DNA of 64,000 bases from a virus: positions 32,001-96,000 of the IMG/VR virus record IMGVR_UViG_3300046535_000406; one strand, 5' to 3'. The position numbers and the translations under genes are program-made. Each line of letters starts with the position of its first letter. Position 1 is the first letter of the stretch. The notes under the pieces were generated by a model. The model was given only the letters and a program-made list of their open reading frames with translations, had not been told where the DNA came from and ran no database searches. Shown one piece after another: positions 5,623 to 30,982 of this stretch.

Positions 5623-5635
5623 TCAGGAACGCGCA

Positions 5636-6088: not shown

Positions 6089-6200
6089 GAGGGCAAGCCT
6101 ACAACCCGCCGGGCACGAGCGCGGGCTTCTTCCTCGGTGGTGACGAAGCCGATGCGCAGCCGCCGGGCGATCGCCAGCAACTCCTCGGGCGGTCGTTCGA

Positions 6201-7289: not shown

Positions 7290-7554
7290 CGAACGGTCCC
7301 GGGACTCGGCGCACGGTGCGACCGTCCATGCGGATCACCACCTCGTCTCTCACTGGGTTGGGCACTGGACGGAAGAAGTCTCGCAGGCCGCGCTCGATGG
7401 CCTCGTCAACCGTGACCACCTCCGCGCTCGCCGGAGCGTCGAGTGGTTCACCCATGGCTTCGAGCCGCCTCACGGCGATCGCCGCCTCGTGTGGCGAGTC
7501 GGTCTGGTGGGCCATCGCCCGGAGCTTGGCGATGCGGGCCTGACGATCAGACAT
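7282..7554 (-). CDS. DUF2786-like small protein (copy 2)
   Basis: MSDRQARIAKLRAMAHQTDSPHEAAIAVRRLEAMG matches the RI.KL.A.A....PHEA..A...L helical hairpin. Confidence 0.6.
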   Translation of the reverse strand: MSDRQARIAKLRAMAHQTDSPHEAAIAVRRLEAMGEPLDAPASAEVVTVDEAIERGLRDFFRPVPNPVRDEVVIRMDGRTVRRVPGPFGE

Positions 7555-7723
7555 GGGGCTTGGTCCACGTGAGCGGCGGCTCGGGCGCCCGCTGGCGCGG
7601 CCTGTTGATGGACACGCCCATGGCTGCCAGCGCAGCCTTCGCTGCCCGGGCCTCGTGGGGCGACTTCGTCTGCTCGGCCATGGCTCGCAGCTTAGCGATC
7701 CGGGCGGAGCGGTCAGCTGCCAT
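7547..7723 (-). CDS. DUF2786-like small protein (copy 1)
   Basis: MAADRSARIAKLRAMAEQTKSPHEARAAKAALAAMG. Confidence 0.6.
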   Translation of the reverse strand: MAADRSARIAKLRAMAEQTKSPHEARAAKAALAAMGVSINRPRQRAPEPPLTWTKPHV

Positions 7724-7815
7724 GGAGGCGGTCCCGGTTGACGCGAAGCGCATCCACGCATTCGGTGGCGTCCTTCAGCAGCACTTCGAGGTGCGCAATG
7801 ATCTGGATGATCCGC

Positions 7816-8296
7816 TCAGCCTGATCGGGCGCGGCTGGCTTGCTGGGTGGCTTCTGCGAGCATGATCGCAGCCTTAGCACGGTCCCTCCATCCCGGGTCC
7901 ATCGCCCAGACCCCGAGGCGCTGTTTCGCCTGCGACACGGTGCAACCGTGCAGCCGGGCGTATCGATCGAGCAGCGTGGCGTCACCGAGCCCCAGCAGGC
8001 TCTTGGGATCAGCTGCCATTCATCACCGCCAACTTCCTTGCCTCCCTTCTGGTCCTCTCGTGGGTTGCCTTGGTCACGGTCCGAGCCACTTGGGGCTCGA
8101 ACACGTCTAGGAGCCTTGCCGGGATGGGGTCGTCCGAGGCGACCGCCCGGACGTTGCCCTCCCTGTCGATCCATGCCGCAACGAACGCATCCGCCGTGAT
8201 CGTCTCCGGGTCACCGGGCTCGGGCACGATCGTCCGGCCACATTCGCCACAGTGATCCACGTCATCGGTGTCAAGGACCACGAGCCGCAGGCTCAT
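7816..8296 (-). CDS. two small hypothetical proteins (7816..8019 and 8009..8296)
   Basis: Overlapping start/stop coupling; 8009..8296 has a CGEC motif. Confidence 0.45.
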
Positions 8297-8616
8297 GCGC
8301 CCTCGCTCTCGACGCCACTGGCGTAGAAGCCGATCCAGTAAGCCATGGCCTCGTTGATGTCCTGAGTGATCGCCTCATCGGTGTGGCGGTCCACAATCTC
8401 GATCGCCTCGCGGTCGGAGGCGCCCATGGCGAGCGTCCAGAGCAGCATCGGGTGGCGCGGACCCAGCGCGTTGCGGGCGATCAGGAACAGGCGCAGACGG
8501 CGCGACTGGTCCTGCTTGGGGATCGACCAGAAGCGTTGCGGCGGCTCCTCATGGTCGATCAGTTGGAGGAACGGATCAGGGTCCGGGAAGGTGCGCGGCG
8601 GCACGGTAGGAAGCAT
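8293..8616 (-). CDS. hypothetical protein, candidate immunity protein for the MuF C-terminal domain
   Basis: 107-aa helical ORF immediately downstream of the giant MuF gene; function inferred from position only. Confidence 0.5.
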   Translation of the reverse strand: MLPTVPPRTFPDPDPFLQLIDHEEPPQRFWSIPKQDQSRRLRLFLIARNALGPRHPMLLWTLAMGASDREAIEIVDRHTDEAITQDINEAMAYWIGFYASGVESEGA

Positions 8617-8668
8617 GAAGCTAACCGGCGCTCAGAGCTATTGTTCCCGCTCCGTACATCGTACTTCC

Positions 8669-11600
8669 TCACCAGCCGCTGGACGTGCTGTTCTGGACCA
8701 CCGGGCCGCTGTAGTTCTTGGTGTATTCCCACGGGTCCATGCCCGCCTTCCGGGCTTCGTTGTTCCACATGCTGCCGTCGTACTTGGACAGCCGGATGAT
8801 CTGGGGCAGCTGAAGGTCGCGGGCGATGATTTCGCGCTCGCCCTCGGTGGACTGGAACCAGCTGGGGTTGACGAAAGAGGTGGCGTAGAAGTTTTCGAGG
8901 TTCATCTTGGCCGTGATCATCACGCCCGCGTCCTGCACGAAGCCCGCGCTCAGGCCCAGCGAGCCGCCGCGACCTGACGGGTAGCCCAGCCTGCTGAGTC
9001 GTTCGTAGTACGCCTGCGCATCCGTCGTGTCGGCGACGTTGCGCACCCACAGCCACGTGCCGGTGGCCGGGTCGTAGGCGTTGCGAATGTCCTTGATCCA
9101 CTGGACGCTGCTGTTCTCGTAGCGCGGGTCGAAGGTGGCATGGAGCACGGCCCACTGGTTGATCTTGGAGGCGTAGGCGTAGGCATCGGCGTCCGTCTTG
9201 GAGGCGATGAGCCCGGCACCGTAGGTGCGAGCCGAACCCATCTTCTCGACCGTCTTCTCGCCCGACATGCCGCTGCCGGAGTAGCTATGCACGTATCCGA
9301 GGGCTTCCTGCATGGACGACTTGCTCGGGCGACCCGGCACGTCGGAACTCGGGTCCAGTAGTCGCCGCGCCTCCTTCAGGGGATCGGTGGTCGGCGACGG
9401 CAGCAGGTCGCGGTCCCACTCGGCCATCTTGTCGATGTGCTGCTCGTCGTACGTCAGTTGGAGCCGGAAGACGCCGCCGTCCTGAAGCAGCCAGTCACGC
9501 CACGACTGCGGCACATCGGCGCCCTTGGGACCGGCCATGGCAGCCTTGACTTCACTCGCGAAGAAGGTCTGGTAGTCGCCGCGCACTTGGTTCTTGCGCA
9601 GCAGCGCGGCCTCGCGGAAGGCGTCGTACGACTTCTGGCGCAGGCCCTTCCAGTCGTTCAGCACCGGCTGAATGATCTGTAGGAACTGCTGGTCCGACAT
9701 GGCTTCGAGGTGGCCCAGCGTGCGGGCGATGGCCTTGGGATCGACGTTCGCCAGCAGGGCCGGGTTCTTCCGGGCGTCGCGCCAGAACATGCTCCACATG
9801 GGCAGCAGGCCCATCTCGCCGCCCTGCCCCTCGTTGGCCGGGTCCAGCGTGTCGAACTTGCCGCCCATGCCCACCCAAGAGCGCGTCTTGTCGATGCCCC
9901 AGAGGTGGCCGTCGCTCTGGGACACCATCCAGTTGCCGATGTGGGCGTCGTCGTTGGCCGTCAGCCAGTCAAGGACCGACTGCTGGAAGAACTCGGTCGT
10001 CTGGTCTGGCGTCAGTTCGCCGGGGCTCTTTACGTGCTCGATGTCCGGCACGAGCTTCTGAAGCGCGCCGTTGGTCATCTTGCCGTTGATTTCGAGGGTG
10101 TATTGCTTCACCGGCGGCGTGCGCAGGTCGAGCAGCCCAGCCAGCTGGTTCACGGCCACGTCGGTGCGCGCTCCGCGACCAGAGGCACCGATCTTGAACA
10201 TCCACTCGTTGCCCTGCGAGTCAATGAAGGCGGCCTTGGGCGACTGGCCGCCGAGCCCCTTGGCGCTGAGCAGCTTCAGGTCCTGCGGCACCGGCCAGAT
10301 GGTTGGAGCCACGATCGGGGTCGCGACCGTCCCGGCGGCGGAGGACGCGCCCATCTCGGCTTCGATGTCCTGCCGCATCATGTTGGCCCGGTCGGCGGTC
10401 ACCCTGATCCATGCGCGGCTCGTGGTGGCCGCTTCGGCGCCCTTGTAGCGCAGCAGCAGGTCACGCAGAGCCGGGTTGGCGCTCAGCACCTGCTGGTCCA
10501 CTTCGAGCACGGTGCCGGGCGTGGCAGCGATGTTGGAGAGCAGCGAGTGGAGCATCCGGACGGTGGAGGCGGTGACCTCGGCCTCGGTCGTGCCGGAGGC
10601 GATCGTCAGGTTGGTCCATTCCATGATCGGCCCGGTGCGCAGCCACTCGGCTTCGACCTTGCCGCCCGCCCAGCTGGACACGGCTCGCAGGCCGTTGGCG
10701 CGGATCGTCTCGCCCCCGGCCAGCCACAGGTTGTCGGGGGTTCCGCCCATGATCTTGATGGGCTGGTTGGCGAGCACGCCCTTGGGCAGGTCCACCAGCT
10801 GGGGAGGCTTGGGGATCGCCGCGAGGACTTGCCCCTGAAGGAGCGGGTCTTCGGTGTTGGCGAGCAGCGCGTTGGCGAGCGTTTCAGCCTGCGGCCCTTC
10901 GAGCCTGACGCCGGGACCCAGTGCGTCGAAGAAGCCACCGCCCTGCCCCTCGGCAGGCCGGACCCTGAAGTCCGTGCCGCCCGCACGCAACAGCAGGTCC
11001 TTCATGCCCGGGTGCGCGTCGAGGACCGCGTCGATCACGTACAGGCGGGAGGCGGCCATCACGTTGCCGTCTTCGTCCACGCGCTGGGCCGTCTTCTGTG
11101 CGAGGTCCAGCAACTCGGACCACGTGGCGTCGTTGACTTCCTTCGCGGTGGCACCCAAGCTCTCGGCGCCGACCAAGCTCACCAGCGATCCCGTGGTGCT
11201 GACGGCGTACAGGGTCTTGACTTGGTTGCCGCCCGACACGGTGTACGTGGCTGTCTGGATCGTCTGTGGCAGCTTCGTCCCGGGCACGATCTGCTGGGGA
11301 CCCGGGAGCGCCGCCTCGGACGCACCGAGGTGGTGGGTCGCGATCATCTCGGAGTGGTCGTAGCCCAGCAGGGTGTCGAGCCGGGAGGACGCGGGGATCA
11401 GCGGACCCTGAGCTACCTGCGACAGGGACTGGGCGCTGACCGGCGGCACGTAGAGCGGGCTGTTGGGCGTGATCAGCTTGGCGTTCGGGACGTAGGGCAC
11501 GATCGGTGCCGCCTTCAGGGCGCCCGGCACCATGGTCACCGGCGTGCCGTCTTCGAGCTTCACGCTGACCGTGCTCATGGTCGTGGAGGTGACGGTGCCG

Positions 11601-14600
11601 TTGCCCTGCGGCGTGATCACCTTGTCGCCGAACTTCCACGGGTTCGGCGCGTACGGGCTGGCCTTCAGTTGGTCCAGCGTGGCCGTCTGGATGACGGATG
11701 AGCCCTTCATCGAGAGGGTCACATCGCCGACCGGGCTGATCGAGGTGATCATGGCGTTGACGCCATTGGGGAGCAGCGCGTAGTCGCCGACCTTCCACGG
11801 CTGGGGCAACTGCTTCAGCAGCAGCTGGTTGTACGTCTCGACCACCGGCGGCAGGCCCTCGGGTGCCACGTTGACGAGCAGCCCGGACGGAGAGGCGGCG
11901 TTGGTGACCACGCCCATCTGGCCCTTCGGCGTCATCACGAAGTCGCCGGTCTTCAGCGGATTGGCAGGCGGCTCGGGAGCCTTCAGGTCGGGGATCGCCG
12001 CGCTGGCCGGGTTGCCGCCCACGTCGAGCGTGATGGTGTCGGTGCTCACGTTGGTGACGGTGCCGACCTTGCCGCTGGGAAGCTGGCCGATGTCACCCGC
12101 CTTCCACAGCTTGGGGATCGGCTTGATGTCCTGCCCGACCAACGTCTGCGTGGTGCCGTCTTCGAGCGCCACGGTCACGGTGGCCGGGTTCACGGTGCTA
12201 TCGACCGACACGACCTCGGCGAGCCCGAAGCCGGAGGCGAACACCGGGTCGCCGGTTTCGAGGTTGCCGACGCCCTTCTGGACGATGGTGACCGAGGTCT
12301 TGCCCAGCTGCTGCACGTTGCCCGTGGTGTTGCCCGAGTAGAGGGCCTTCAGGTAGTAGCCGGTGTCGGGTATCTCGGTGACGACGTAGGGCTTGCCGCC
12401 GGTGTAGTAGACGACCGTGTCGCCCACGGCCACTTCGGATGCGGGCCACGTCTGGACGTAGGACAGCTGCGACATGGGGATGTTCGCGCCGGAGCCGTAG
12501 CTCTGGATGGTGACCTTCGCCTTGCCGTTCTTGAAGACCTTGACGATCTTGCCGTAGTTACCGTCCTGCTTCAGCACCCAGTCGCCCACGGCGAGCTTGT
12601 GGGCCGAGAGGGCCGCCTTGGACAGGGTGGGCGCAACGACCTTGGGCACGTTCACGCCGGTCGGCGTCAGGAAAGCTACGTTGGTCCACGACTTGGGATA
12701 CGTGTCCCAGTCCACCAGCACGGTGCTGCCGCTGGACACCTCGGTCACGGTGCCGGTGCCGAAGCTCGGGTGGGTGACCTGATCGCCGACCTTCAGCCCA
12801 GCCGGGGCCGTGCTCGCCTTCACGGTCGCGACTGTCCCCGGCTCGACCTTGGTCAGGGTCGAGATGCCGACCAGCTGCTTGCCGTTGGCCCCGAAGTCCA
12901 CCATCGCGGTCGGGCTGTAGGGGGTCTTCTCAATGACCGTGCCGGTGCCGTAGAGGGGCTGAGCCACGGTGTCCCCGGGCTTGGGGACGTACGTCTCACC
13001 GGCGGACGGCACGGGCTTGACGATGCTGGCGTAGGCGCTGCCGGGTCCACCCTTGGCGGTGCTGACCGTGCCGCTGCCCTCCCACTTCACCGTGACGGCG
13101 TTGTCGCTGACATTGGTGACAACGCCGCTGGTGCCGGTGGGGGTCCACTTCACCTTGTCGCCGACGACGAAGGTCGCAGGGACTGGCTCGGGCGCCACGA
13201 ACGGGGTCAGGTCGCTCTCCGCCTTCAGGAGCGGGTAGCCAGTCACGTCGGAGGTCACGATGACCATGCCGCTCGGCTGGTTCAGCTGGGTCACGGTCGC
13301 CGTGATGGGCTGGTTTCCGGCGTCAGTGAACGTCACCTTGTCGCCGATGGCGTACTTGGGCGCGGCGGCTGGCTTCAGGAGTTCCGTCTTCACGGTCAGG
13401 GTGCCCGTCCCGGAGCCCACTCCTGCTGTCCCGAGGGTCACGTTGGCCTTCGTGCCGTCGTCGGTCACGTAGGCGATCTTGCCGGTCTGGCCGGTCGGCA
13501 CGGTCACCCAGTCGCCTTGGTGAAAGCCCGGTTGGACCTTGACCAGCGTCAGGTCCTTCGTCTCCTGAGTGAGGTTCGCCGTCATGGTCGTGACATGGGC
13601 CGTCAGGCCGTCGGGAGAGAGGTAGTTCACGACGCCCTCGTCGCCGCCGTAGGTGAGCACGGAGTCGCCGACCTTGATCTGAGGCTTGGGCGTGAGCTTC
13701 GCTGGGTTGTAGATTTTCGATGACGGGGCGTTGGGCGACGTGAGCGGGTCGAACGACACCTCGACGGTGGCCGAGTTGACTTGGGCGATCGTGCCGATGC
13801 CGTAGTCGTTCGTCAGCACCTTGTCGCCGACGGCAAACTTGGGCGCAGGCGTGGTCGCCGTGATCCAGCCCTTGTTCACGCTCTCCGGGACCAGCACGAA
13901 TGGCGTGCCGTCCACGCCCATCGCCTGCACGTTGCCGGTCACCGGGAACAGCTTGGTGACGGTCAGGTTCTGGCCGCCATAGTTGACGTGTTCGCCGATG
14001 CGGAACGGCGCCGGGTTGGCGTTCTCCAACTCGCTCGGCTCGAACGTCACCTGTGTGGCGTGCTCGTCGTTCAGGATCACTTCGATGTCCAAGCCGTCAG
14101 GCGAGATGGCCGTGATCGTGCCCGTCTCGCCGTCGAAGGCGCCACCGATCGCCTTCACGGTGACCTTGCCACCGACCTTGGGACCGACAGCCGCCGACAA
14201 CTGGGAGGTTGGGAAGTAGCCCCATACGGGCTCGCCCGGGAACTCGACTCCCCACGTCATCTCGCCGTTCACGATCCCGTGGGTGCCCATGACGGTCCCT
14301 GTCTTGCCGTTCACGCTGACGGTGTCTCCGGCCTTGGGGGTAAGCGGGCTCGGGACAGCGGCAGGCGTCAATGTGCCTGCCTTGGCAGAGACGATCACCT
14401 CGTTCTGGGCGAAGGTCCCCGTACTCCCATCGAGCATGGTCACGTCCATCATCTGGCCGTTCAGTGACACGTAGTTCACGGTGCCCATCTGCCCGCCGTA
14501 CGTGGCGACATCGCCGGTGGCGTCGCCGCCGCCGGGCTTGACCACGATTTCGTCGCCCACCTTGGCGAGCACAGGCGGCGGAGCACCGACCAGCTTCAGG

Positions 14601-20600: not shown

Positions 20601-23600
20601 ACGAGGGCCTTCTGCCCATCGGCGCTGATCGAGGCGATCAGGGCGGGCTTGTTGTCGAGGGTGTGCACCATGTCGCCGGGCTTCAGCGACGTGATCGCCT
20701 TCACGATCGGCTTCAGCTGGTCCGCGAGGAAGTAGCTCGTCACGCTCGGGAACTTCACGTAGAACGTGCCGCCCGCCACGGCATCGATCACCGTGCCGAT
20801 CCCATAGGTCGCGTGGAGCACGGTGTCGCCGATCGCGAACGCTGCCGGGGCGACCGAGGCGACCGCCGCCACGTCGGTCAGGTCGTTCAGCAGCGAATGG
20901 ACGAGGCCGATGGTGTTGGGGCGGCTGAGTATCCAGCCACCGAGCACGCTCGACGGCTTCAGCCCGGCAGCCGTGAGCATCTGCTTGGTCTTGTCGCCCA
21001 GCACGTTCATAACCGCGTCATCGATGCGGACCGCGAGGTGGTTGACCCCGTACAGGGCGGGGTTCTGCATCACGCCCGCGAAGTATTGGAGTTGCCCCAC
21101 CAGCGCCGCCGCCACGTCAGGCTCGCTTACGTTCTCGCCGGTGATCACTTGGTTCAGCCGGAGGTTGCCGTTGGGCGACGTGTCCCAGTAGAACTCCACG
21201 TCGCCGCCCTTGCTGGTCGTCCACACCTGCTTCTGCGGGTGCGACTTCAGGTCAGGGCCGTCAGGCGTCGGGATGCCGGTCCCGGTGCCGTTGACGAAGT
21301 TGTACGCCTCGTGCTGGTCGAAGCCCCACTTCTCGCCGATGCCCGTGGTGCCTTGGGCCGACAGCTTGTTCGGCGTGGCCGTGACCACGTGGCCCAGCGT
21401 CTGATCGAGCGACTTGGCCTGCGCAGCAGGGTGCATGGCAGCCGTGGTGATCCCGGGTGGCGGCAGCAGTGACGTGATCGAGACGTTCTGGTCGGTGGCC
21501 TTCCGGAGCAGCTGAAGCTGCGGAGCGTCAAGCCGCCACGAGCCACCCTCGCTCTTGCTGCCGAGCACGGTGAACAGGTCCGCCAGCTTGGCCGTCTCGG
21601 TGGTGGAGACGGTGACTTCGACCTCCATGCCCTTGTCGGCCTGTCGCAGGATTTCCTTCAGCAGGATCGCCCGGCGCGTCTCGATGCCGGTGACCTTCCA
21701 CTCGGGCACGCCCATGCGGACGAAGCTGCTGGCCGCGTTCGGGTAGAACAGGTTGATGGGCTGATCGGTGGTGCCGATCTTCCAGTGCACGCTGCTCAGG
21801 ACTTCGTCCGGTGCCTTGCCTTCGCTGACGAACAGCGAGGTGTCCCATGCGGGCTTGGCGACGCCGTACGTCTCGAAGAACGGGTCCGCCGGAGCCTCCA
21901 CGCCATGGGTGGCGAAGTGCGTTGGCGTGTTCGTGCCGACGATCTGTCCCACGGCGATGGTCGGGTCAGCCGGTCCCAGCTTGGCCGCGAGGGTGTCAGT
22001 GACAGCCGGTGTCAGTGTCAGTGTCGGGGCGTCAGCCGACAGGGCGGTGGGATCGGCCATGATCTTGGCGACCTTCACCGCATCGCCGTTGCCGATCAGC
22101 AGGGTCTTGCCGAAGCCGGGCACCTCGCCCGGGATGCCCAGCAGGGCGAAGTCAGCCTTGCCGAAGCCCATGGAGCCCTCGATCGAGAGGTCCCAGCCCT
22201 TGGGCAGGTTGGTCACCATGGCGAGCATCGCGTTGGCCCGAAGCTGGGCCATGGCCGGATCAGCCGCCGCCACCAGCACGCCGCTGTCGTTCTTGAACGC
22301 CGTCAGCACCCAGCGACGTGTCTTGGCCGCTTCGTCGTCGCGGAAGAACACCGAGGACGTGCCATCTGGTCCGCCCGGAAGCTCGACCTTCATCAGCCCG
22401 GTCGGCATCGAGGTGGGCGTCCAGACGCCAGCCGATGCCTCAGCGATCTGGGGGTCGTACCCCAGTTGCTCGTGGAGGAACGGCGATCCGCCACTCACGT
22501 CATCGGGGGACATGCCCAGCAGGCGGGCAGGCGGCTCGGTGATCGGAGGCGCGACCGGCGGCAGGCCAGCCTGTTCGAGGTAGGAGTCGAGCACCTTGGT
22601 GTCGCGGGAGTCGGGCTTGTCGTAGCGCAGCAGGACCGGGCGCACCTCGGACGGAGTGCCCAGTCTTACGCTGTACGTCTCCTTGATCGTCTTGGCCCAC
22701 GCCGGACCGCCGCCTGTCCGGTGGGCCACGTAGTAGCGGGTGATCGAGCCGTTGTCGGTGGCGGTGAAGTCACCGAGGTACTTGTCAAGCTCCACGCTGA
22801 AGCCCATTTCCTCACGGGCCTCGCGCACGGCAGCCTGCGCGGTCGTCTCGTTCAGGTCCACGCCGCCCTTGGCGAAGGTGTTCTCGTAGCCCGCCCAGCG
22901 GTTGCGCGGGGAGATGATCCACATGCGGCCATCGGGCTCGACCAGCACCACGCCTGCACGGAGGCTGTGTGTGCCCTTCTTTGCCACGTCGTAGGCGTCG
23001 ATCGTGTCCAGCTGCTTCTGGCTGTAGCCCAGCGTGTCCTTCCAGAACGCATCGCTGTTGGTGTCGAGCCCACCCTTGACGGCCTTGTCCAGCGCATCGA
23101 GGTCGGCCTTGGACTTGGCCGCGTAATACTGGCTGCCGATCTTCTGCTCGAACAGGCCAGCCTTCTTTGCGGCGTCCGACTCGGCTTGGCTCCACGTGAT
23201 CGCGTACTTGGCCTCGCCCGACTGGACGGCCTCCCAGCGCAGCCACGCCTTGTCGGCGGCCTCGCGCATGTCCTTCAGCTGCCAGTCCGCCACGGCGCCT
23301 TCAGGCAGCGGAGGCTCCTCGGGCACATGGCCGGTCCAGTCAACCGGCGGCGTGTTCAGCGGAGCGATCCCTTCGACGGGGATGGGCTCCACCGTGGTGC
23401 CGGGTTCGAGCACCGGCGCCTTCTCATCGATCTTGAACGTCAGCCCGTCGAACGGCGTGTCAGGCTTTGGCGGGGCCGTGAACGACTTGAACGGGACGCC
23501 CGTGTATTGGTAGCCCGGCACGACCCCGGTGTCCGGCACGAGGTCTACGACCGAGACGTTCTCGGCCAGCCCAAGCTCCTTGCCGTCGGTGACGCGCACG

Positions 23601-26600
23601 ATCCGCCAGCGCAGGTTGCGCGGCAACTGGACCTGATAGGTGGCCTCGCCTGCGCTGAGCCGGAAGCCCTTGGGCACGTGCATTCGCTGGACCACCCCGC
23701 CGGGGATCGCGAAGTTGTACGCCTTGTTGCCGCTGCTCGTGGCGAACGGGATGGCCTTGTCCACGTAGCTGTCGCCGACCTTGCCCAGCGCGCCCGCCTT
23801 CAGGCTCTGGCCTCGGTACAGGATGCCCGGGGCCGTCGTCTCGGCTTGGGTGGACAGGCGGTCGTAGTAGTCGAGCAGGTCCTTGCCCTTGACCATGGTT
23901 CCATCGACCGACTGGTCGGCGACGTGCTCCCCTGCGCGAAGGGACTTGTTGATGGCGCCCGTGTCCACCGCGTTCCACTCGGCGGCGTCCGCGATGGGCT
24001 TCAGGTTCGGTTCCAGCCACCACTCGTCCTTCGGGTTCAGCAGCTGGGTGACGATGCCAGCCGAGCCCTCCGGCGCAAACTCGGCGGCGGTGGGCGCTGG
24101 CGGCAGTGGCACTTCTGGCTTGGACCACTGCGGCGTGAGCTTCTTGTCCCAGAGCGTCGCCGCAGCCGGTAGCACCTCGGTGGGCGCCTCGAACGTGCTG
24201 CCCTTGATGAGCCACACCTGCCAGTCGGTGGGCACGACGGACACGTCCTTCTTCCACAGCGTCGCCATGTTCCGGATCAGCTTGGTGGCGCCTTCGCGCT
24301 CAGCCTCGGGCAGAGCGAGCACGGCGTCGCGCACCGCCTGCGGCGTGTTGTTCTTGAAGAAGCCGGTGTCCTTGGGCTTCATCACGTCCGTCAGGTTCAC
24401 GCTCGGCAGGTCCTGCGGAGAGAAGCCCAGCAGCGGATCGGCTGGCTTGGCCGGGTAGAACTTGTCGAAGATCGCGGCCAGCTGCTTCGTCTCGGGCTGG
24501 TTCATCCCCTCGATGGCGCCCGCGAACGTCTCGGCCCATAGCTCGTGCTGGTTCGAGCGGGCGTACTTCGAGATGTGCGTCGTCTTCAGGGCAGGCCAGA
24601 GGGTTGACTTCAGCCACGGCTCCAACTCCTGCCGCACCGGCGCGTAGCGATCCGCGCCCAGCCGCGAGTGGAGGTTCATGCCCAGCCATTCGTGGCCCAT
24701 CTCGTGGGTCACCACGTCGGAGGCCCACTCGTCGGCGTTGGTCGCGATCTGGCCGCCGACGCTGAACGGGACGTTGGCCTTGTCCCGCAGGAACGCCTTC
24801 TGCAAGGCCGTCGAGTCGGTGAACATGGCGCGGTTCAGGAACACCTTGGAGCCGGGCACGTTGGGGTCGATGCGGGCCACTTCGGCGATCGTGCCCTTGC
24901 CCGGCGCGTAGGTGCGCAGCGCGACGCCACGGAAGCTGGGGATCGTGCCGAAGCGGCTGAACAGCATGTCCATGCGCTTCGCCAGCACCTTGCCGGTGTC
25001 AAACGGCACTTCGAGCAGGCCGCTCCAATCCGTGCCCGGGTAGCGGGCCTCCATGCGCGCCACAAGCTCGGACACGTTGGTGACCTCGGACACGGTCGCG
25101 CCCAGATCAGCCGGTGGCGTGTACGGGAAGGTGCCGCCGTCATCGAGCCACGCCTTCCACGCTGCGCTCGGGTGGTCGGCGATGGTGGTGCGATCTGCGA
25201 ACAGGTCCTCGACCGATTGACGCAGGTTGTGCTTGCGGCTCAGCAGGTCGGCCTTGGCGGCGTCCGTGGTGAGCGCGTCACCGACGGCGTTCAGCAACTG
25301 CTGGTCGGTGACGCCATCGAAGCGATCGAGCGTGGTCGCCACGTCCTGTGGGGTGAGGCGCAGCAGCAGGTCCGGGGAGTGGTCGATCCTGCCGAACATC
25401 GACGCATCAGCCCGCTCATAGAAGTCCGTCAGGGATGGCGTCAGGCCGGAGCCCAGCCGGTCGAAGCCGTAGCCCTTGTCGATCGCCCACACGCGCCCGG
25501 AGTCGTAGAGGTAGTTCCCGCCGTGGCCGTCGGCGTTGTGGATCAGGTAGTCAACGAGCCCGTGGCCGAACAGCTGCCGTTCCTCGTCGTGGCCCAGCAC
25601 CCGGGCCAGCGTGGCGGCGTCGGGCGCTCGGACCCAGTAGCTCTGGGCGGTGCGAGGCACGAGTGCCTGCCACGCATACCACGGGTTGTCGCCGGTGCCG
25701 AACGCGATCCGCGCAACCGGCGGAGCATCGAGGCCAAACAGGGTGGTGACGCGGGAGCCTGCGACTTCCTCCGAGACGCCGTAGGGCTTCAGCAGGAACT
25801 CCTGCCCGGTCGGGTCCTTCAGCAGGACACGCGGCGTGGTGCCCTTGCCCAGCTTGTCCGCGCTGCCCCACTTCCAGCCGGGCAGCAGGCCGCCGGTGCC
25901 CCACTTGCTCGGGTCAACGAGCACCTGCTCGGTCGGGAAGGCGCCGAACTTGGTGACCGGGAACGTAATCTCGGGCGTGTGCCACACACCCCCTTCGCGC
26001 ATCAGCGACCACGCCTCGGTGTCACCGGCCAGCGTGCCGGGAATGTAGTCGGGCCGGGTCATGGCGGTGAACGCCTCGGCCCAGAACTCCTCGTCCGAGG
26101 TGTCGGCGTAGGACTTCAGCTTCAGCAGGTTGTCGCCCCGGAAGTCAGCCTTGAACGTGTTCCAGCGATCAGCGCCCAGTCGCTGAGAGAGGCGGTTCGA
26201 CACGAGGTGGCCGTACTCGTGAGCCCATGCGTCGCCGAAGGTGTTCGAGACGGTGATCTTCCCGGCCAGCCCCATCTCGGGTTCGAGGTTGATGCGCCCG
26301 TCGCTGAAGGCTCGGCCCGCGTAGCCCACGCCGTCGCTTGACTCGATCACGGACAGCGCGCTGTTCAGGGAGCGGTCGATGCCCAGCTGGTCGAATAGCT
26401 CGGCCTTGGCTCGCAGCATGTCCCACTGGGCAGACGAGAACGCCTCGCCCGCGAGGTTCTTCATGCCCGGGAACAGGGCCATGGCGTCGGCCATGGGGTG
26501 CTCCGGCGACGGCTCGAAGGCGGTCTGGACGATGGCGTTGGCGTTGCTGACGTGCGGCTCCGCCGCAAGGGCGCGGAAGCTGGGCATCTCCGGCATCTCG

Positions 26601-28780
26601 CGCATCCACGTCAACTGCGGCCCGGGCAGGATCGGGTGCTCGGTGAAGATCGAGGCTCCGGCGGCGATCGTGTCGGGGATGCGCTGTGCCAGCGGTAGCT
26701 CGGCGGACACCGCGCCCAGCCCGTTCAGGAAGTCGGCCAGCCCCTGATTGACCAGCCGGTTGTCGAACTGAAGGCTGAGCCCGCGCTCTGCTGCGCTCTG
26801 AGCGGCCCAGCGGATGGCCGCCACGGTCATTTCCGGCTCGAAGGTGTGTGAAGACGCACCCGTCATCGCGCCGGTGATGAAGCGCAGGTTCTTGGCGTCC
26901 TCCTGATAGACGGCGGAGTAGGTGTTGTCGCCCAGCGCGAACTTCTGGACCAGCACCGGACCGACGCCCGGCTCGCGTATCCCATCCCGAATGTACGGAG
27001 CGTGCAGATCGGGCGGGTGCTTCAGCCACGCAAGCTCCTCGGGCAGGGCCAGCGCCGGGGCGTCAACGACGATCTGGGAGGCCACGTCGGTGTCCCACGT
27101 GAAGGCGTTCTGGTCGGCCACCGGCTGCTGCGACGGACCGTAGTCAGGCAGGTCGCCCAGCAGCGACGCCACCGGGATGGGCGTGCCGCAGGCGTCGGCC
27201 TCCTTGATCCACACGAGGTTGATCGGTCCCTCGGTGACCATGGACTCGGCGAAGTCGGAGATGCCTGCCAGCGGGTCGCCGCAGACGGTGTCGGGCACGT
27301 CGTACTCGAAGCGGCACTTGCAGTTGAGTCCGCACTGGGTGTGGCCGGAGCCCGGGAACAGGCCCATGCTCATCAGCGCGTCGTAGCTGTACGGGCTCAT
27401 GTCCGATAGCTCGATGCAGTCGTCGCAGTGGTCCGCGTCGCCCAGCGTCCACCAGACTTGGATGATCTGGCCCATGGGCGTCGGCGAGAACACGTGATCC
27501 TGACCGATGGCCGACTGCACGTTCGCCACGTCGGCAACCGTCTGGGCCGTGGGTGTGGCGCCCGTCACGGGCGCGATGTTGTCGCCCACTCGGAAGGCTG
27601 CGCGCTCGCCCGCCTGCGCGAGGGAGTGGAAGTCGTTCAGGGCACCGCCGACCAGCAGCGCCCGGAGCCACTTCACCGTGTCCGGCTGTGCGAGGTTCCA
27701 CGGGTTCAGGACGTTCTTCACGATCCAGTTCAGCAGGCCGCCCTTGGCGTGGAGCGCGGCATCTGCCGCCACCATGCTGTCGGTGATGTCGCCTTGGTTG
27801 TCGGCGCTCAGCTGGTTCGCGTTGCGAGCACCAGCGGCCCTGCGCGCTGCCCGCATGGCACGGAGAGCTTGGGCGTGCAGGATGGCGTTGACTCGGGCAG
27901 CGGCCTCCTGCGGCGTGATCCTCCCGGATTGGAGCAGCCGGGTGACCACGGCCAGCTGGTTGCGCACGGCGGCCTGAGCACTGGCGCTGATCTTGGCGAT
28001 GGCGGCCAGCAGCTTCCTGACTTGGGCCTGCTGCACCAGCGTCTGGTTGGCCTGTGCCAGCTTCGCTCGCTCAGCCGCGATGCGATCGAGGATGACCGGG
28101 ATTGACGTGTTCTCGGAGTCGGCCACCGCCCGAGCGAAGCCCTTGCGCATCACGTCGTCCATGCGCACGGCGACCGACTGCAACAGCAGGGCCTCCATGG
28201 CCGGGGCGTCCTTGGCCTGCTTGGGGTCCTTGCCGTTGGTGGTGGTGATCAGGCGCCCGATCAGGTCGCCCACGGAGCCGACCGGGATGACCGTCTCGGC
28301 GGGTGCCAGCCCGGCGGCCATGAGCGTGCGCTGAATGTCCTGCTGGTCCTGCGTCGAGAGCCGTGACAGGTTGCCCAGCGATCGCTTGCCGACGGTGTAG
28401 GCGTTGCTCGCCTGACGCAGGTAGGCCGCGCTGAGCGCCGCCGTGAACTGGGTGCTGGTCAGCGTGCCAGCCTGAAACTGCTCGATCAGCAGCAGCGCCG
28501 ACTCCACGAACTGGCGCACTGCCCGGGACAGGCGCTCATCGGCGCCGGGGTTGCGCTGGGCCGGTCCCCAGCCGATCACCGGCAGCCCTGCGCTCAGCGC
28601 GTAGGCGATCGCCTGAAGGTGGTTGATGTCCCGGTCCGAGGCGACGATGCCCGTCGCGTCCTCTTGGATGGCAACGTCGTACTGGGGGTCGTACCAGAGA
28701 GGATCACTGGCGCTTCGCAGCGCCTCGGTGATCTGTTCCAGCAGCGCCTCGGTGAGGTCCCGGTCAGTCTCCGCGACCAT
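8669..28780 (-). CDS. giant MuF-type (head morphogenesis) polyvalent protein, ~6,703 aa
   Basis: Directly after portal; likely ATG 28780 with GAGG SD. MuF-type Cys cluster WWTLGDADHCDDC...FPGSGHTQCGLNCKCRF (~27300-27460). Then zincin HEYGH (~26210), kinase NADGHGGN/IDKG (~25470-25550), zincin HEMGH (~24700), ART-like (~23550-23990), Nudix box GGVDLNETTAQAAVREAREEMG (~22800-22870), KOW/SH3-like arrays, second kinase NDDAHIGN/IDKT (~9885-9970), C-terminal ART-like EGEREI. Confidence 0.85.
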   Translation of the reverse strand: MVAETDRDLTEALLEQITEALRSASDPLWYDPQYDVAIQEDATGIVASDRDINHLQAIAYALSAGLPVIGWGPAQRNPGADERLSRAVRQFVESALLLIEQFQAGTLTSTQFTAALSAAYLRQASNAYTVGKRSLGNLSRLSTQDQQDIQRTLMAAGLAPAETVIPVGSVGDLIGRLITTTNGKDPKQAKDAPAMEALLLQSVAVRMDDVMRKGFARAVADSENTSIPVILDRIAAERAKLAQANQTLVQQAQVRKLLAAIAKISASAQAAVRNQLAVVTRLLQSGRITPQEAAARVNAILHAQALRAMRAARRAAGARNANQLSADNQGDITDSMVAADAALHAKGGLLNWIVKNVLNPWNLAQPDTVKWLRALLVGGALNDFHSLAQAGERAAFRVGDNIAPVTGATPTAQTVADVANVQSAIGQDHVFSPTPMGQIIQVWWTLGDADHCDDCIELSDMSPYSYDALMSMGLFPGSGHTQCGLNCKCRFEYDVPDTVCGDPLAGISDFAESMVTEGPINLVWIKEADACGTPIPVASLLGDLPDYGPSQQPVADQNAFTWDTDVASQIVVDAPALALPEELAWLKHPPDLHAPYIRDGIREPGVGPVLVQKFALGDNTYSAVYQEDAKNLRFITGAMTGASSHTFEPEMTVAAIRWAAQSAAERGLSLQFDNRLVNQGLADFLNGLGAVSAELPLAQRIPDTIAAGASIFTEHPILPGPQLTWMREMPEMPSFRALAAEPHVSNANAIVQTAFEPSPEHPMADAMALFPGMKNLAGEAFSSAQWDMLRAKAELFDQLGIDRSLNSALSVIESSDGVGYAGRAFSDGRINLEPEMGLAGKITVSNTFGDAWAHEYGHLVSNRLSQRLGADRWNTFKADFRGDNLLKLKSYADTSDEEFWAEAFTAMTRPDYIPGTLAGDTEAWSLMREGGVWHTPEITFPVTKFGAFPTEQVLVDPSKWGTGGLLPGWKWGSADKLGKGTTPRVLLKDPTGQEFLLKPYGVSEEVAGSRVTTLFGLDAPPVARIAFGTGDNPWYAWQALVPRTAQSYWVRAPDAATLARVLGHDEERQLFGHGLVDYLIHNADGHGGNYLYDSGRVWAIDKGYGFDRLGSGLTPSLTDFYERADASMFGRIDHSPDLLLRLTPQDVATTLDRFDGVTDQQLLNAVGDALTTDAAKADLLSRKHNLRQSVEDLFADRTTIADHPSAAWKAWLDDGGTFPYTPPADLGATVSEVTNVSELVARMEARYPGTDWSGLLEVPFDTGKVLAKRMDMLFSRFGTIPSFRGVALRTYAPGKGTIAEVARIDPNVPGSKVFLNRAMFTDSTALQKAFLRDKANVPFSVGGQIATNADEWASDVVTHEMGHEWLGMNLHSRLGADRYAPVRQELEPWLKSTLWPALKTTHISKYARSNQHELWAETFAGAIEGMNQPETKQLAAIFDKFYPAKPADPLLGFSPQDLPSVNLTDVMKPKDTGFFKNNTPQAVRDAVLALPEAEREGATKLIRNMATLWKKDVSVVPTDWQVWLIKGSTFEAPTEVLPAAATLWDKKLTPQWSKPEVPLPPAPTAAEFAPEGSAGIVTQLLNPKDEWWLEPNLKPIADAAEWNAVDTGAINKSLRAGEHVADQSVDGTMVKGKDLLDYYDRLSTQAETTAPGILYRGQSLKAGALGKVGDSYVDKAIPFATSSGNKAYNFAIPGGVVQRMHVPKGFRLSAGEATYQVQLPRNLRWRIVRVTDGKELGLAENVSVVDLVPDTGVVPGYQYTGVPFKSFTAPPKPDTPFDGLTFKIDEKAPVLEPGTTVEPIPVEGIAPLNTPPVDWTGHVPEEPPLPEGAVADWQLKDMREAADKAWLRWEAVQSGEAKYAITWSQAESDAAKKAGLFEQKIGSQYYAAKSKADLDALDKAVKGGLDTNSDAFWKDTLGYSQKQLDTIDAYDVAKKGTHSLRAGVVLVEPDGRMWIISPRNRWAGYENTFAKGGVDLNETTAQAAVREAREEMGFSVELDKYLGDFTATDNGSITRYYVAHRTGGGPAWAKTIKETYSVRLGTPSEVRPVLLRYDKPDSRDTKVLDSYLEQAGLPPVAPPITEPPARLLGMSPDDVSGGSPFLHEQLGYDPQIAEASAGVWTPTSMPTGLMKVELPGGPDGTSSVFFRDDEAAKTRRWVLTAFKNDSGVLVAAADPAMAQLRANAMLAMVTNLPKGWDLSIEGSMGFGKADFALLGIPGEVPGFGKTLLIGNGDAVKVAKIMADPTALSADAPTLTLTPAVTDTLAAKLGPADPTIAVGQIVGTNTPTHFATHGVEAPADPFFETYGVAKPAWDTSLFVSEGKAPDEVLSSVHWKIGTTDQPINLFYPNAASSFVRMGVPEWKVTGIETRRAILLKEILRQADKGMEVEVTVSTTETAKLADLFTVLGSKSEGGSWRLDAPQLQLLRKATDQNVSITSLLPPPGITTAAMHPAAQAKSLDQTLGHVVTATPNKLSAQGTTGIGEKWGFDQHEAYNFVNGTGTGIPTPDGPDLKSHPQKQVWTTSKGGDVEFYWDTSPNGNLRLNQVITGENVSEPDVAAALVGQLQYFAGVMQNPALYGVNHLAVRIDDAVMNVLGDKTKQMLTAAGLKPSSVLGGWILSRPNTIGLVHSLLNDLTDVAAVASVAPAAFAIGDTVLHATYGIGTVIDAVAGGTFYVKFPSVTSYFLADQLKPIVKAITSLKPGDMVHTLDNKPALIASISADGQKALVKIGFGEQTFSIADLSLAHQWQIGDLVNYLGNEGSITKIEPDILFLKTTADGKLFATEPWNANLTFIGSQPAWEVGDTLVNGAGVKGAVTFVHADGFIDVHWATGTSPSIHVDPNATTLGVPLTKTGSLGAPTAPAAPSAAGFRVGDKVQSGGLSGTKGVIAAVFPDAGKVTVTWDSGITSTAFDPTHPNVMLKHVEPSATFKVGDHVANMWDATGTITNVADGKVGITWDISPGAGAGLLIDPTTVGLKHVPDVGVTQPPLKVGDTVIEQISGKGQMVTVQTIDPVGTLALVELPDGSTTWMAVSSLVKPGFSSPAWAVGTATPVAAVTTFVQGDVVKTAFGVGKVNKVLPGDVIEVTLPSGAYKSFTVGELSSVAPQVGDAVIHPTLGHATITKIDTGITPVQIQVKAVGSEAWAWANPDNVVKVGDKLQHGAIVQTIDANQVIAVTGGAKFTSPVSEVQKDLKLGKYPGLTPGTGAVTTAAEPWKVGDQALWQPPGFAHPEQVTIQAVSPSGLITVKGAAANAFPVAPTELARVPAATTEPFKVGDAVLVTKGAAFSGQVGSITHVGLLSSGETYYDVALPGAPYVSFKAEELAPAPGTAPGVMAPGGVPAGITVGAKVEIEGLTGTVTQIAPNGILTIAVDTGGSTTAYGIGDAKVVMVQHGPPLRIDGKVHISGTGVSSLDGQDGIISAIHPNGTYAVTKLDGATAQDVSAKNLHPFLTWNVGDTALLPSGTKVEIKSITGLDFYGATVQYADGHIDKWPVWALVKPAGAAPTPVVPTNPFKIGDHVTTPSGSSGVVSEITPPQGVSGGMIVMKLPDGTSLVTSPATLKMTRPPGAVGGLFQKLGVSKAEFDKGWQTQLATGESAYQVKPVGGAIGGLYASMKKNLQGDLVLYSIGGTTLGSDASYLAALSGIASFPLDPLKIAPKNLIVPTSFLNAMPTLSDLMKQAGAVESQYGWLTLTAAQATDLATKLSTDTQLITVGSLAAGGTKVAGSIDFAGWATEDIAQMAAAIGAIPDTLALGGGALSLSWKAGKFDIGGTLDYPPNATKPMRILNLTSPIAMQNTTFMVVTQYAGESLSYGQKLIYEDQALSVIDEHWKNMLLDHYNGSLDLSGSQTRIILPYEDAQQLAKDIKQASGIASPQALPVPPQTGVLTGATLAVPNPVTVGAYDPLTASLYTVQYEKSVSGHSLLSGANTTMKQTHYGTGAIDGGTAEWRRIGNRLELWQTTGDQLGVFAAQMRKFNDYMDATPSLTHLNLKGPILEPGPVRTWLEEAGWDPSQKLLKSDVDQIVSDLDSEVGAATNAVPVTLAFGSVPGYDPAVVDNFAMHWGVETNEKAAYLSGANTSVKHVVWGGGSSLDYRRLGNRVELLKLTAPSEHIADNVAFAFIQHAADLFDKTPSLYRLRIDSDAFLATSLSMRDTLKAYGGVLSKTNDMAFKPEDVQAIRDKLVADGQAPTIVTVAPPPVAPTFSTLGTIEGYDPQAIALASIPDIEQTIHPVHLAGTANKALKETIYGDGNQALKVQWRRIGQRIEVSSAEGDYTPTLLLAHMKRMAEAMETTPGIEYTVVRASIVGGMPLDLRNLFEVAYGTAATKGDIKMGRLDAEALLKDLKADEVKAKAAPGIAPTIQSAPKPVPATTVASSYAAGDHIVWGKGLNGFVTSVDHNGKLSVTSVSGTTFKLKPEDVTPYTATTPNVVFPGSKAGGYNLGDQVQWGKPSLGTPMQTGTVTQISQSGELTITTQSGAVVHKAATNPNLSKVAPAVSFAKGVIEPPPTTLAVGDKVKFVGSGPPTYEVMAVKPNGLIDVKDSDGNLWADMNGEHAVKVGVVPAFTPIPPEGLKVGDWALKPDGKYAKVMHTFDNGNVQLSIGNTFAPGDIVPAGSVTKVAEPTKQAAFSIGDQVVLPNGKVDVIASIDGVDEYHVAGAPGLPFFGKDMLLAKPAEPAGLKVGDIVDHMNGNSAYKGGTVVAINDVSKTANVKWPGFGGAQGLESPQVNLKLVGAPPPVLAKVGDEIVVKPGGGDATGDVATYGGQMGTVNYVSLNGQMMDVTMLDGSTGTFAQNEVIVSAKAGTLTPAAVPSPLTPKAGDTVSVNGKTGTVMGTHGIVNGEMTWGVEFPGEPVWGYFPTSQLSAAVGPKVGGKVTVKAIGGAFDGETGTITAISPDGLDIEVILNDEHATQVTFEPSELENANPAPFRIGEHVNYGGQNLTVTKLFPVTGNVQAMGVDGTPFVLVPESVNKGWITATTPAPKFAVGDKVLTNDYGIGTIAQVNSATVEVSFDPLTSPNAPSSKIYNPAKLTPKPQIKVGDSVLTYGGDEGVVNYLSPDGLTAHVTTMTANLTQETKDLTLVKVQPGFHQGDWVTVPTGQTGKIAYVTDDGTKANVTLGTAGVGSGTGTLTVKTELLKPAAAPKYAIGDKVTFTDAGNQPITATVTQLNQPSGMVIVTSDVTGYPLLKAESDLTPFVAPEPVPATFVVGDKVKWTPTGTSGVVTNVSDNAVTVKWEGSGTVSTAKGGPGSAYASIVKPVPSAGETYVPKPGDTVAQPLYGTGTVIEKTPYSPTAMVDFGANGKQLVGISTLTKVEPGTVATVKASTAPAGLKVGDQVTHPSFGTGTVTEVSSGSTVLVDWDTYPKSWTNVAFLTPTGVNVPKVVAPTLSKAALSAHKLAVGDWVLKQDGNYGKIVKVFKNGKAKVTIQSYGSGANIPMSQLSYVQTWPASEVAVGDTVVYYTGGKPYVVTEIPDTGYYLKALYSGNTTGNVQQLGKTSVTIVQKGVGNLETGDPVFASGFGLAEVVSVDSTVNPATVTVALEDGTTQTLVGQDIKPIPKLWKAGDIGQLPSGKVGTVTNVSTDTITLDVGGNPASAAIPDLKAPEPPANPLKTGDFVMTPKGQMGVVTNAASPSGLLVNVAPEGLPPVVETYNQLLLKQLPQPWKVGDYALLPNGVNAMITSISPVGDVTLSMKGSSVIQTATLDQLKASPYAPNPWKFGDKVITPQGNGTVTSTTMSTVSVKLEDGTPVTMVPGALKAAPIVPYVPNAKLITPNSPLYVPPVSAQSLSQVAQGPLIPASSRLDTLLGYDHSEMIATHHLGASEAALPGPQQIVPGTKLPQTIQTATYTVSGGNQVKTLYAVSTTGSLVSLVGAESLGATAKEVNDATWSELLDLAQKTAQRVDEDGNVMAASRLYVIDAVLDAHPGMKDLLLRAGGTDFRVRPAEGQGGGFFDALGPGVRLEGPQAETLANALLANTEDPLLQGQVLAAIPKPPQLVDLPKGVLANQPIKIMGGTPDNLWLAGGETIRANGLRAVSSWAGGKVEAEWLRTGPIMEWTNLTIASGTTEAEVTASTVRMLHSLLSNIAATPGTVLEVDQQVLSANPALRDLLLRYKGAEAATTSRAWIRVTADRANMMRQDIEAEMGASSAAGTVATPIVAPTIWPVPQDLKLLSAKGLGGQSPKAAFIDSQGNEWMFKIGASGRGARTDVAVNQLAGLLDLRTPPVKQYTLEINGKMTNGALQKLVPDIEHVKSPGELTPDQTTEFFQQSVLDWLTANDDAHIGNWMVSQSDGHLWGIDKTRSWVGMGGKFDTLDPANEGQGGEMGLLPMWSMFWRDARKNPALLANVDPKAIARTLGHLEAMSDQQFLQIIQPVLNDWKGLRQKSYDAFREAALLRKNQVRGDYQTFFASEVKAAMAGPKGADVPQSWRDWLLQDGGVFRLQLTYDEQHIDKMAEWDRDLLPSPTTDPLKEARRLLDPSSDVPGRPSKSSMQEALGYVHSYSGSGMSGEKTVEKMGSARTYGAGLIASKTDADAYAYASKINQWAVLHATFDPRYENSSVQWIKDIRNAYDPATGTWLWVRNVADTTDAQAYYERLSRLGYPSGRGGSLGLSAGFVQDAGVMITAKMNLENFYATSFVNPSWFQSTEGEREIIARDLQLPQIIRLSKYDGSMWNNEARKAGMDPWEYTKNYSGPVVQNSTSSGW
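11520..15660 (-). repeat. protein-level array of ~24 KOW/SH3-like small beta-barrel repeats inside the giant protein
   Basis: Units begin (F/W/L)x(V/I)GD.V followed by G.(G/V)TV..V, about 50-60 aa each; counted by eye. Confidence 0.75.
18110..20840 (-). repeat. protein-level array of ~16 KOW/SH3-like repeats inside the giant protein
   Basis: From FAIGDTVLHATYGIGTV to FKIGDHVTTPSGSSGVV; counted by eye. Confidence 0.75.
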
Positions 28781-30839: not shown

Positions 30840-30982
30840 CACCAGCACCTGAAGTGCGCCCCATCCTGAACGTCGAAGCTCGGCACGCCCGGATGGGGCA
30901 GAACGCCGCTCCTCAAGAACCGGGGTTGCCGGTCGCGGGGAAAGCCTATCACGGGCGTCCAGACTGCTGGTACTGTGCGCGC

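Follow-up and report, generated by a model that had tools for sequence, protein, structure and literature searches.

A single unbroken gene behind the portal gene

The stretch of DNA analyzed here (the window, 64,000 nucleotides) corresponds to bases 32001–96000 of the IMG/VR virus record IMGVR_UViG_3300046535_000406, a sequence of 109,497 bp that has no end repeats and is estimated to be 87% complete. On the minus strand of the window, positions 8669–28780 are occupied by a gene encoding a protein of 6,703 amino acids (aa) in one unbroken frame, which makes up 18% of the record. The product (hereafter, the giant protein) consists of roughly 65 domain units, enzymes included, and is probably a virion-associated polyvalent cargo that docks at the portal and is ejected into the next host.

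The underlying open reading frame (ORF) is open from a TTG codon at 28816 to the stop codon at 8669, i.e., over 6,715 codons, and the residue numbers used below are counted from this TTG. The ATG at 28780 (MVAETD...), located 12 codons inside the frame, is likely the true start of the gene, since it is preceded by GAGG and agrees with the starts of two related proteins (P0004 and P0002), as well as with the gene call of the database copy of the giant protein (P0003, 6,703 aa).

An exhaustive phmmer search with aa 1–560 retrieved 178 proteins. Among these are 14 independently assembled giants of 4,805–7,742 aa and two fragments of 2.2–2.7k aa, and the window protein is not the largest of the family. 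The other matches are mostly proteins of 150–500 aa, in which only aa ~440–510 are covered. The giants share a frame consisting of the N-terminal helical region, Cys-rich domain, post-Cys domain, a kinase/zincin section, Nudix domain, a variable middle, the domains U3a and U3b, kinase and C-terminal domain. The relative P0004 is 52–59% identical to the window protein in the shared parts, lacks the second zincin-like module and the first ADP-ribosyltransferase (ART)-like domain, and has far fewer repeats. The gene order is also conserved: in an independent viral contig (L008), a portal gene of the same PHROG is followed by the genes for a giant, a protease/scaffold-like protein and a decoration protein. 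No match to the N-terminal 700 aa was found by tblastn among 50,697 deposited phage genomes.

The G+C content at third codon positions (GC3) is 0.85–0.95 in each 200-codon bin of the giant gene, and this evenness indicates that the whole 20 kb are coding in one frame. Tandem Repeats Finder detected no tandem repeats in the DNA of the gene. The longest direct repeats span at most 60 nt at no more than 84% identity and mostly represent codons of the V-G-D motif, with no direct repeats exceeding 84% identity over 60 nt anywhere in the gene. The repeats of the protein are therefore old and diverged, and present no trap for an assembler; misassembly through them is unlikely. Thus, the single 20-kb ORF that the initial annotation had placed after the portal gene was confirmed with exact coordinates, and the relatives are encoded in the same frame. 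The possibility that several genes were falsely joined into one frame by an assembly or annotation artefact is practically negligible. Apart from the uniform GC3 and the lack of assembly-prone DNA repeats, it is contradicted by the 14 relatives, which come from other assemblies and show unbroken frames of 4.8–7.7k aa with the same module order, and by the gene of one relative that was observed directly as DNA.

The end of the portal gene, with its stop codon, reaches 17 nt into the giant gene, so the position attributed to the latter, the MuF/gp7 gene slot known from SPP1 and Mu, holds. On the 3' side, two small ORFs and a 769-aa gene follow on the same strand, and after them come the genes for a cement-like protein and the major capsid protein (Table 1).

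Table 1. Modules of the giant protein and neighbouring head genes. Positions refer to the window; residues are those of the giant protein.
Feature	Residues (aa)	Position	Strand	Remarks
Portal gene		28764–31001	-	phrog_10963, E-value 2e-34
N-terminal helical region	13–400	27617–28780	-	Kept in all giant relatives; AF2 pLDDT 76, long helices
Cys-rich domain	~440–545	27182–27499	-	phrog_24776; holds all 7 Cys
Post-Cys domain	546–760	26537–27181	-	Family-conserved; weak relation to U/GYD domains
Zincin-like module 1	761–960	25937–26536	-	HEYGH at 866, then EEFWAEAF
Kinase 1	985–1260	25037–25864	-	Paralogue of kinase 2; D-x-H-x-x-N and I-D-K
Zincin-like module 2	1265–1455	24452–25024	-	HEMGH at 1371, HELWAETFA; phrog_16681
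ART-like domain 1 (ART1)	1590–1790	23447–24049	-	Y-R-G, F-A-T-S-S; Q-V-Q at expected E-x-E
Pre-Nudix region and Nudix domain	1791–2100	22517–23446	-	Pfam match at aa 1951–2024, box intact
U1a–c, three U/GYD-type domains	2101–2655	20852–22516	-	
Repeat array 1, 16 copies	2657–3577	18086–20848	-	~55-aa x-x-V-G-D-x-V unit
U2a, U2b and three GYDP units	3578–4385	15662–18085	-	
Repeat array 2, 24 copies	4385–5774	11495–15664	-	~55-aa x-x-V-G-D-x-V unit as in array 1
U3a and U3b	5775–6190	10247–11494	-	Precede the C-terminal kinase in nearly all relatives
Kinase 2	6191–6450	9467–10246	-	PI4KII/CtkA/HipA-type; F-K, N-D-D-x-H-x-x-N, I-D-K invariant
C-terminal domain ("ART2")	6553–6715	8672–9160	-	E-x-E at aa 6660/6662
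Protease/scaffold-like gene		3231–5540	-	769 aa; weak prohead-protease match
Cement-like gene		1841–2479	-	212 aa
Major capsid gene		763–1755	-	330 aa; PF25209, E-value 6e-39

Enzymatic modules and repeat arrays

Searches against Pfam and PHROGs were run with the whole protein and with ten sub-fragments. The Nudix domain alone gave a significant match, and no MuF, ART, KOW or LPD family was matched. Sequence searches of PDB with both halves of the protein, ART1, ART2 and a four-sequence profile of ART2 returned nothing useful. The Nudix domain scores 37.5 bits against PF00293 (cut-off, 21.1 bits; E-value, 2.8e-9) and has an intact Nudix box, as had been proposed. The core of the box (R-E-x-x-E-E-x-G) is kept in 16 of the 16 family members, and the full form, G-x5-E-x7-R-E-U-x-E-E-x-G-U, was read in the window protein only.

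The presence of two kinases of the PI4K/HipA/CtkA type is solid. Self-BLAST aligned aa 1004–1183 with aa 6202–6387 at 28% identity (E-value, 3e-12), which points to a real duplication, and the model of the C-terminal kinase (pLDDT 83) has a Foldseek match to CtkA (E-value, 2e-4), in line with an atypical kinase fold. The catalytic loop, D-x-H-x-x-N, and the metal-binding Asp are present, and the motifs are invariant in 14 sequences. The families PF00454 and PF07804 remain below threshold on the giant protein and are precomputed on the relative P0005.

Two putative HExxH zincins are recognizable at the level of motifs. In both modules, HExxH is followed by an E-x-W-A-E-x-F helix, and HExxH is kept in 14 of 16 family copies of module 1 and in all three copies of module 2. 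This part of the initial annotation was put too firmly: the two motifs are conserved, and the best scores with family hidden Markov models (HMMs) fall below the cut-offs, namely those of ATLF (lethal-factor-like) for module 1 (17.6 bits; E-value, 0.003) and Peptidase_Mx for module 2 (16.7 bits; E-value, 0.005).

The two proposed ART-like domains are less certain than had been described. ART1, which among the giants occurs in the window protein only, has no Pfam or PDB sequence match; a language-model look-alike score of 0.94, with all ten best Atlas matches in ADPrib_exo_Tox/ART clusters, provides a lead towards an ADP-ribosyltransferase-like domain. The E-x-E motif would presumably be expected before L-P-R-N, and in this position ART1 reads Q-V-Q. 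In ART2, which nearly all relatives retain, a conserved Arg ends strand 1, strand 2 is S/T-x-S-like, and an E-x-E enters strand 5. The order of these elements is canonical for ARTs, and the E-x-E varies little or not at all among 14 giants. ART2 gave no PDB sequence or profile match, and hhalign detected no similarity between ART2 and ART1. The fold-search lists for the model of the C-terminus (kinase 2 and ART2) are filled by kinases, with no ART2 match read out, and no homologues of the C-terminal 525 aa were found among proteins of 288–919 aa. The polyvalent architecture that had been described is supported: several unrelated effector domains, namely the Nudix domain, two kinases, two HExxH modules and the ART-like domains, are combined in one polypeptide of the head module.

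Much of the remaining length is repetitive. An iterated HMM counted exactly the 16 and 24 copies that had been reported for the two arrays (aa 2657–3577 and aa 4385–5774), three of these copies being weak. The repeats and their numbers thus stand, and the label KOW-like is not supported by family models: no KOW family of Pfam matches the repeat unit, and the nearest hits are all sub-threshold, namely CarD_TRCF_RID (20.6 bits; cut-off, 23), SH3_15, YajC and PDZ_2. PF02559 is precomputed on P0003. The three-fold GYDP module (~145 aa per unit) was likewise found in a chunked self-BLAST, in agreement with the earlier description. Based on hhalign, U1b, U1c, U2a, GYDP, U3a and U3b form one linked set, with link probabilities of 92–99.7% that are not reached in each pairwise comparison. 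The post-Cys domain and U1a are attached to this set more weakly, and U2b stays outside. All profiles were built by iteration on one set of proteins and drew in members of one another. Read in this way, the giant protein would hold about ten copies of a U/GYD domain of ~130–170 aa, to which no function is assigned and whose mark is G-Y-D ... W-R-R-x-G-N.

Since more than half of the giant protein consists of non-enzymatic repeats, it could be considered a structural ejection protein, i.e., a DNA pilot or the builder of a trans-envelope conduit, with a long fibre made of the arrays and U domains, zincins that act on peptidoglycan, and accessory roles for the remaining enzymes. The 2,811-aa protein gp47 of phi24B has been proposed as such a conduit (bioRxiv 10.64898/2026.04.10.717836), and gpF of Mu carries the annotation DNA pilot. 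The repeat arrays are, however, the least conserved part of the family: large arrays occur in the window protein and P0004 alone, and most relatives have next to none, while the conserved frame consists of the enzymes and both end modules. For these reasons, a chiefly structural role appears unlikely, and a conduit function would in any case be compatible with a packed and ejected cargo rather than exclude it.

The Cys-rich domain, a probable anchor

All seven Cys residues of the giant protein are located at aa 464–543, and the other ~6,170 residues contain none. About 67 would be expected in this body from the mean Cys content of 40 other genes of the window (1.08%). Exactly the seven anchor Cys residues are carried by 11 of the 15 giants. 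A Cys-free body fits a chain that must stay intact and free of disulfide cross-links while outside the cell, and must afterwards unfold and refold. Other Cys-free products encoded in the window are the major capsid protein (0/330), the cement-like protein (0/212) and those of gene 42001–43449, which bears the peptide tag described below (0/482), and gene 49486–50760 (0/424). Small putative non-structural genes of the phage have a Cys content of 3–6%.

The Cys-rich domain is characterized by the motif W-x-L-G-x-x-D-H-C-x-D-C ... P-G-S-G-H-T-x-C-x-x-x-C-x-C. In the alignment of its small relatives, C-x2-C ... C-x3-C-x-C is invariant along with a His, a Trp and a Pro, and the domain probably binds Zn. 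The unannotated phrog_24776 takes in 64 of 80 small relatives. The initial annotation had assigned the N-terminus to the MuF family and had tied this assignment to a match with MuF/SPP1 gp7 structures; family membership was not borne out. PF04233 and PF06152 gave no match in the giant protein (E-value ≤ 5) or in any of the 80 small relatives (E-value ≤ 0.001). Nothing in the whole 109-kb record matched PF04233 at an E-value ≤ 10, and no protein passed its cut-off in five other records with a Cys-domain gene. When the family profile was compared with the single sequences of SPP1 gp7 and Mu F by hhalign, only NC[RK]C was aligned (probability < 5%). The AF2 model of the N-terminus (pLDDT 76) has no significant structural neighbour; several "head morphogenesis" or "MuF-like" proteins are among the top rows of the BFVD Foldseek search with non-significant E-values (0.01–0.2). 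In one Atlas neighbour cluster, 18% of the members carry PF04233, and by eye the MuF motif layout, W ... D-x-x-[RH]-[TC]-x-x-[HC] ... P-x-G-x-x-NC[RK]C, is discernible.

As regards its role, we conclude that the Cys domain is likely to work like MuF, since it is found behind portals, in one case as part of a portal fusion, and in front of cargo of the MuF type. Small Cys-domain genes lie directly after portal genes in the contigs L002 and L015, and in P0049 the Cys domain is fused behind the portal. Variable cargo invariably follows the domain on its C-terminal side; in the relatives, this cargo includes the C-terminal part of the Mu gpF-type PHROG, the tail of a "head morphogenesis" PHROG and a domain that also occurs in DarB-like polyvalent proteins. 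The same logic of portal adjacency was used to define MuF3 and MuF4 (Jamet et al., PMC5576092). A predicted complex of portal aa 55–745 with giant aa 300–560 scored 0.00 and is evidence neither way. Taken as a distant, Zn-binding branch of the MuF superfamily, the Cys domain would be explained in a manner that we moderately favour. Alternatively, but with only a small chance of being correct, the module may not be a diverged MuF at all, being instead a separate Zn-dependent domain for portal docking or ejection piloting with its own capsid-loading route. The Cys-free chain would then pass the tail in an unfolded state, and the ~55-residue beta-barrels would act as fast-refolding ratchets that pull the ~700-kDa chain, and perhaps the DNA end, into the cell. 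If so, the family would be a model for phage export of megadalton-scale cargo.

The fusion in P0049 also bears on a different placement of the giant protein, as a fibre on the outside of the head or neck that is attached close to the portal and uses its beta-barrel arrays for adhesion. Exposed virion fibres typically have small beta-barrels in tandem and lack Cys. Intact ATP- or NAD-dependent enzymes, in contrast, would have no substrate outside the cell, and in P0049 the Cys domain stands behind the portal core, which would place it on the capsid-interior side. An external fibre is thus considered very improbable.

The sites preferred by inteins are essential and conserved. An insertion that begins with C-L-x-x-G-[DT]-x-V is present in three of the 14 relatives (P0004, P0023 and P0028), immediately behind G-S-G-H-T-x and before C-x-x-x-C-x-C. 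In P0004, the insertion (aa ~480–757) is identified as an intein by the precomputed family PF14890 (Intein_splicing). That inteins occur in three relatives at one and the same place in the Cys motif suggests that the anchor is essential. The window protein has no insertion at the homologous site (aa 495; window position ~27332).

Just after the Cys motif, at aa 523–531 (window ~27220–27250), the giant protein contains V-W-[VI]-x-E-A-x-x-C, of which V523, E527 and C531 are invariant in 15 giants and A528 is nearly so. Such conservation is compatible with a cleavage site at which the cargo is released from the anchor, and equally with a structural part played in the Zn domain. Two other contigs illustrate variants of the portal region. 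In L015 (IMGVR_UViG_3300033066_001313, positions 4796–8794), a 1,332-aa portal gene is broken by an HNH-endonuclease-like segment (aa ~770–920), possibly an intein or homing element, and the Cys-domain gene that directly follows it (325 aa) belongs to phrog_24776. In the 97-kb uncultured phage L006 (IMGVR_UViG_3300045744_000007, positions 1005–12505), terminase and portal genes are followed, in this order, by genes for a 319-aa protein matching MuF-type PHROGs ("head morphogenesis", "minor head protein") and a separate 2,029-aa protein with the same kinase type as the giant protein. This looks like an unfused version of the portal–anchor–cargo arrangement.

In the window, the portal gene itself has only distant database matches (22–29% identity). 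Its real start is probably at 30839, since conservation with the portal of a relative begins only at M55, 54 codons into the listed ORF. The protein has a long, poorly conserved Pro/Ala-rich insertion (aa ~480–590). Upstream of the portal gene, where a terminase is expected, genes 31769–33196 and 33136–34431 have no significant Pfam or PHROG match, the sole match of the latter being a sub-threshold RHS-repeat. A tRNA search found none. The peptide H-[FY]-Y-G-A-W-x-G-G ... G-G-H occurs in five copies on the minus strand of the window (at 5150, 42660, 43383, 44302 and 44695), one in the 769-aa gene and four in genes 42001–43449 and 43640–45577. As this tag of other cargo genes is present in the window and absent from the giant protein, two different capsid-loading routes may exist in one phage. 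The prohead-protease motif [LIV][RS]E[AS] is not enriched in the giant protein (one site observed, 0.8 expected).

Proposed role and relation to known systems

The initial annotation had described the giant protein as an injected multi-effector head protein. Its position in the head module, the MuF-like behaviour of the anchor and the multi-enzyme body agree with this description, which stays the best reading. Packing and ejection are suggested by the position of the gene, the MuF-like anchor, the Cys-free body, the presence of enzymes that need ATP or NAD, and the precedents for delivered head cargo, namely Alt, N4 vRNAP, DarB and phi24B gp47 (PMC5512222, PMC13434306, bioRxiv 10.64898/2026.04.10.717836). 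During head assembly, the N-terminal helices and the Cys-rich, probably Zn-binding domain would dock the giant protein at or near the portal, in the role of MuF/gp7. The protein would be stored in the capsid and leave it with the DNA through the portal–tail channel, largely unfolded. The two HExxH modules might cut the chain into working pieces, by analogy to the systems described by Iyer et al. (2017), and in the new host the kinases, the Nudix domain and one or two ART-like domains could serve takeover or anti-defence by modifying proteins or nucleotides of the host. Speculatively, the ~40 small beta-barrels and ~10 U/GYD domains may serve as spacers, fast-refolding units or binding modules.

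An unpackaged protein was also considered, either as a late polyprotein acting in the producing cell or as a polymorphic-toxin-like weapon released by lysis against neighbour bacteria. Jamet et al. (2017) discuss the MuF-toxin fusions of temperate phages as inter-bacterial toxins (PMC5576092), and secreted proteins, too, would suit the depletion of Cys. Nevertheless, the giant gene is translationally coupled to the portal gene within the head operon, and the chemistry of kinase, Nudix and ART domains depends on ATP or NAD from the cytoplasm. A gene for an immunity-like partner was not found, and no prophage relatives of the C-terminal module were found in the 185,579 species genomes scanned. 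An unpackaged function therefore seems quite improbable.

Several points weigh against a packed and ejected cargo. Packaging and ejection are inferred for an uncultured phage that is known here from its genes, and homology of the anchor to MuF was not demonstrated, the Pfam, hhalign and fold comparisons all being non-significant. Depletion of Cys would suit any extracellular virion protein, the capsid and cement-like proteins being Cys-free as well. Because of its Q-V-Q, ART1 may be inactive or atypical; for ART2, whose fold assignment draws on a residue pattern, the chances of being an ART appear about evenly balanced. Self-processing by the zincins is only an analogy. Finally, at ~700 kDa, the giant protein would be twice as large as any protein shown to be ejected. 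According to our estimate, one 700-kDa chain would fill far less than 1% of the space in a capsid for ~110–125 kb, so size alone is no bar to packaging.

Polyvalent proteins are predicted to be injected, and have 2–15 domains and sizes "often >2,000 aa" (Iyer et al. 2017, PMC5512222). The giant protein resembles them in its head/packaging context, in the mix of HExxH, kinase, ART and Nudix-type domains, and in the variability of modules among relatives. It differs from that set in its ~65 domain units and 6,703 aa (up to 7,742 aa in relatives), in the lack of any Pfam LPD family match, and in an anchor that is Cys-rich and not Pfam MuF. In addition, the kinases of the giant protein keep the full PI4KII/CtkA/HipA-like fold; Iyer et al. 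(2017) describe a truncated kinase clade, to which these kinases may or may not belong. With the MuF superfamily (Mu gpF, SPP1 gp7 and MuF toxins), it has in common the location directly 3' of the portal gene, an N-terminal anchor, variable C-terminal cargo and the layout of motifs. SPP1 gp7 binds the portal (PMC5576092). Unlike SPP1 gp7 and Mu gpF, the anchor has five invariant Cys residues and a His, suggesting Zn sites that are absent from the first motif of those proteins, and in contrast to MuF toxins, which usually have one toxin domain (PMC5576092), dozens of modules are present.

The very large size is shared with N4 vRNAP, a protein of ~3,500 aa that is ejected (PMC13434306), and with phi24B gp47, a polyvalent protein with a metallopeptidase domain that was detected in virions (bioRxiv 10.64898/2026.04.10.717836). 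These two proteins are stored in the capsid and expelled, whereas packaging of the giant protein is inferred from genes; it has no sequence relation to either of them, is about two times larger and contains no RNA polymerase. Its kinases share the atypical fold, the intact catalytic loop and the metal-binding Asp with Helicobacter pylori CtkA, HipA/HipT toxins and type II PI4-kinases. They are, however, only 10–15% identical to CtkA, HipA and PI4-kinases, are duplicated and reside in a protein of the phage head module; the class of substrate (protein, lipid or other) cannot be deduced from these likenesses.

Taken together, the giant protein represents a known idea, that of a packed and injected polyvalent protein, at about twice the size seen before. 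What is new is the confinement of Cys to the anchor, the inteins in the core motif of the anchor, the fixed ends with a free middle, and the conserved synteny. The anchor family phrog_24776, so far unannotated, occupies the MuF slot of many uncultured phages and hosts inteins. A Cys-free body behind a Cys-rich anchor is a possible signature for finding ejected proteins in metagenomes, and the C-terminal kinase with the E-x-E domain, as well as the Nudix domain, are candidate effectors of host takeover or anti-defence. With at least 14 members of 4.8k–7.7k aa that have fixed ends and an exchangeable middle, the family separates delivery machinery from payload. If packaged, the giant protein would be approximately twice as large as any protein for which passage through a phage tail is known or has been proposed, and would sharpen the question of how such a chain is stored, unfolded and expelled.

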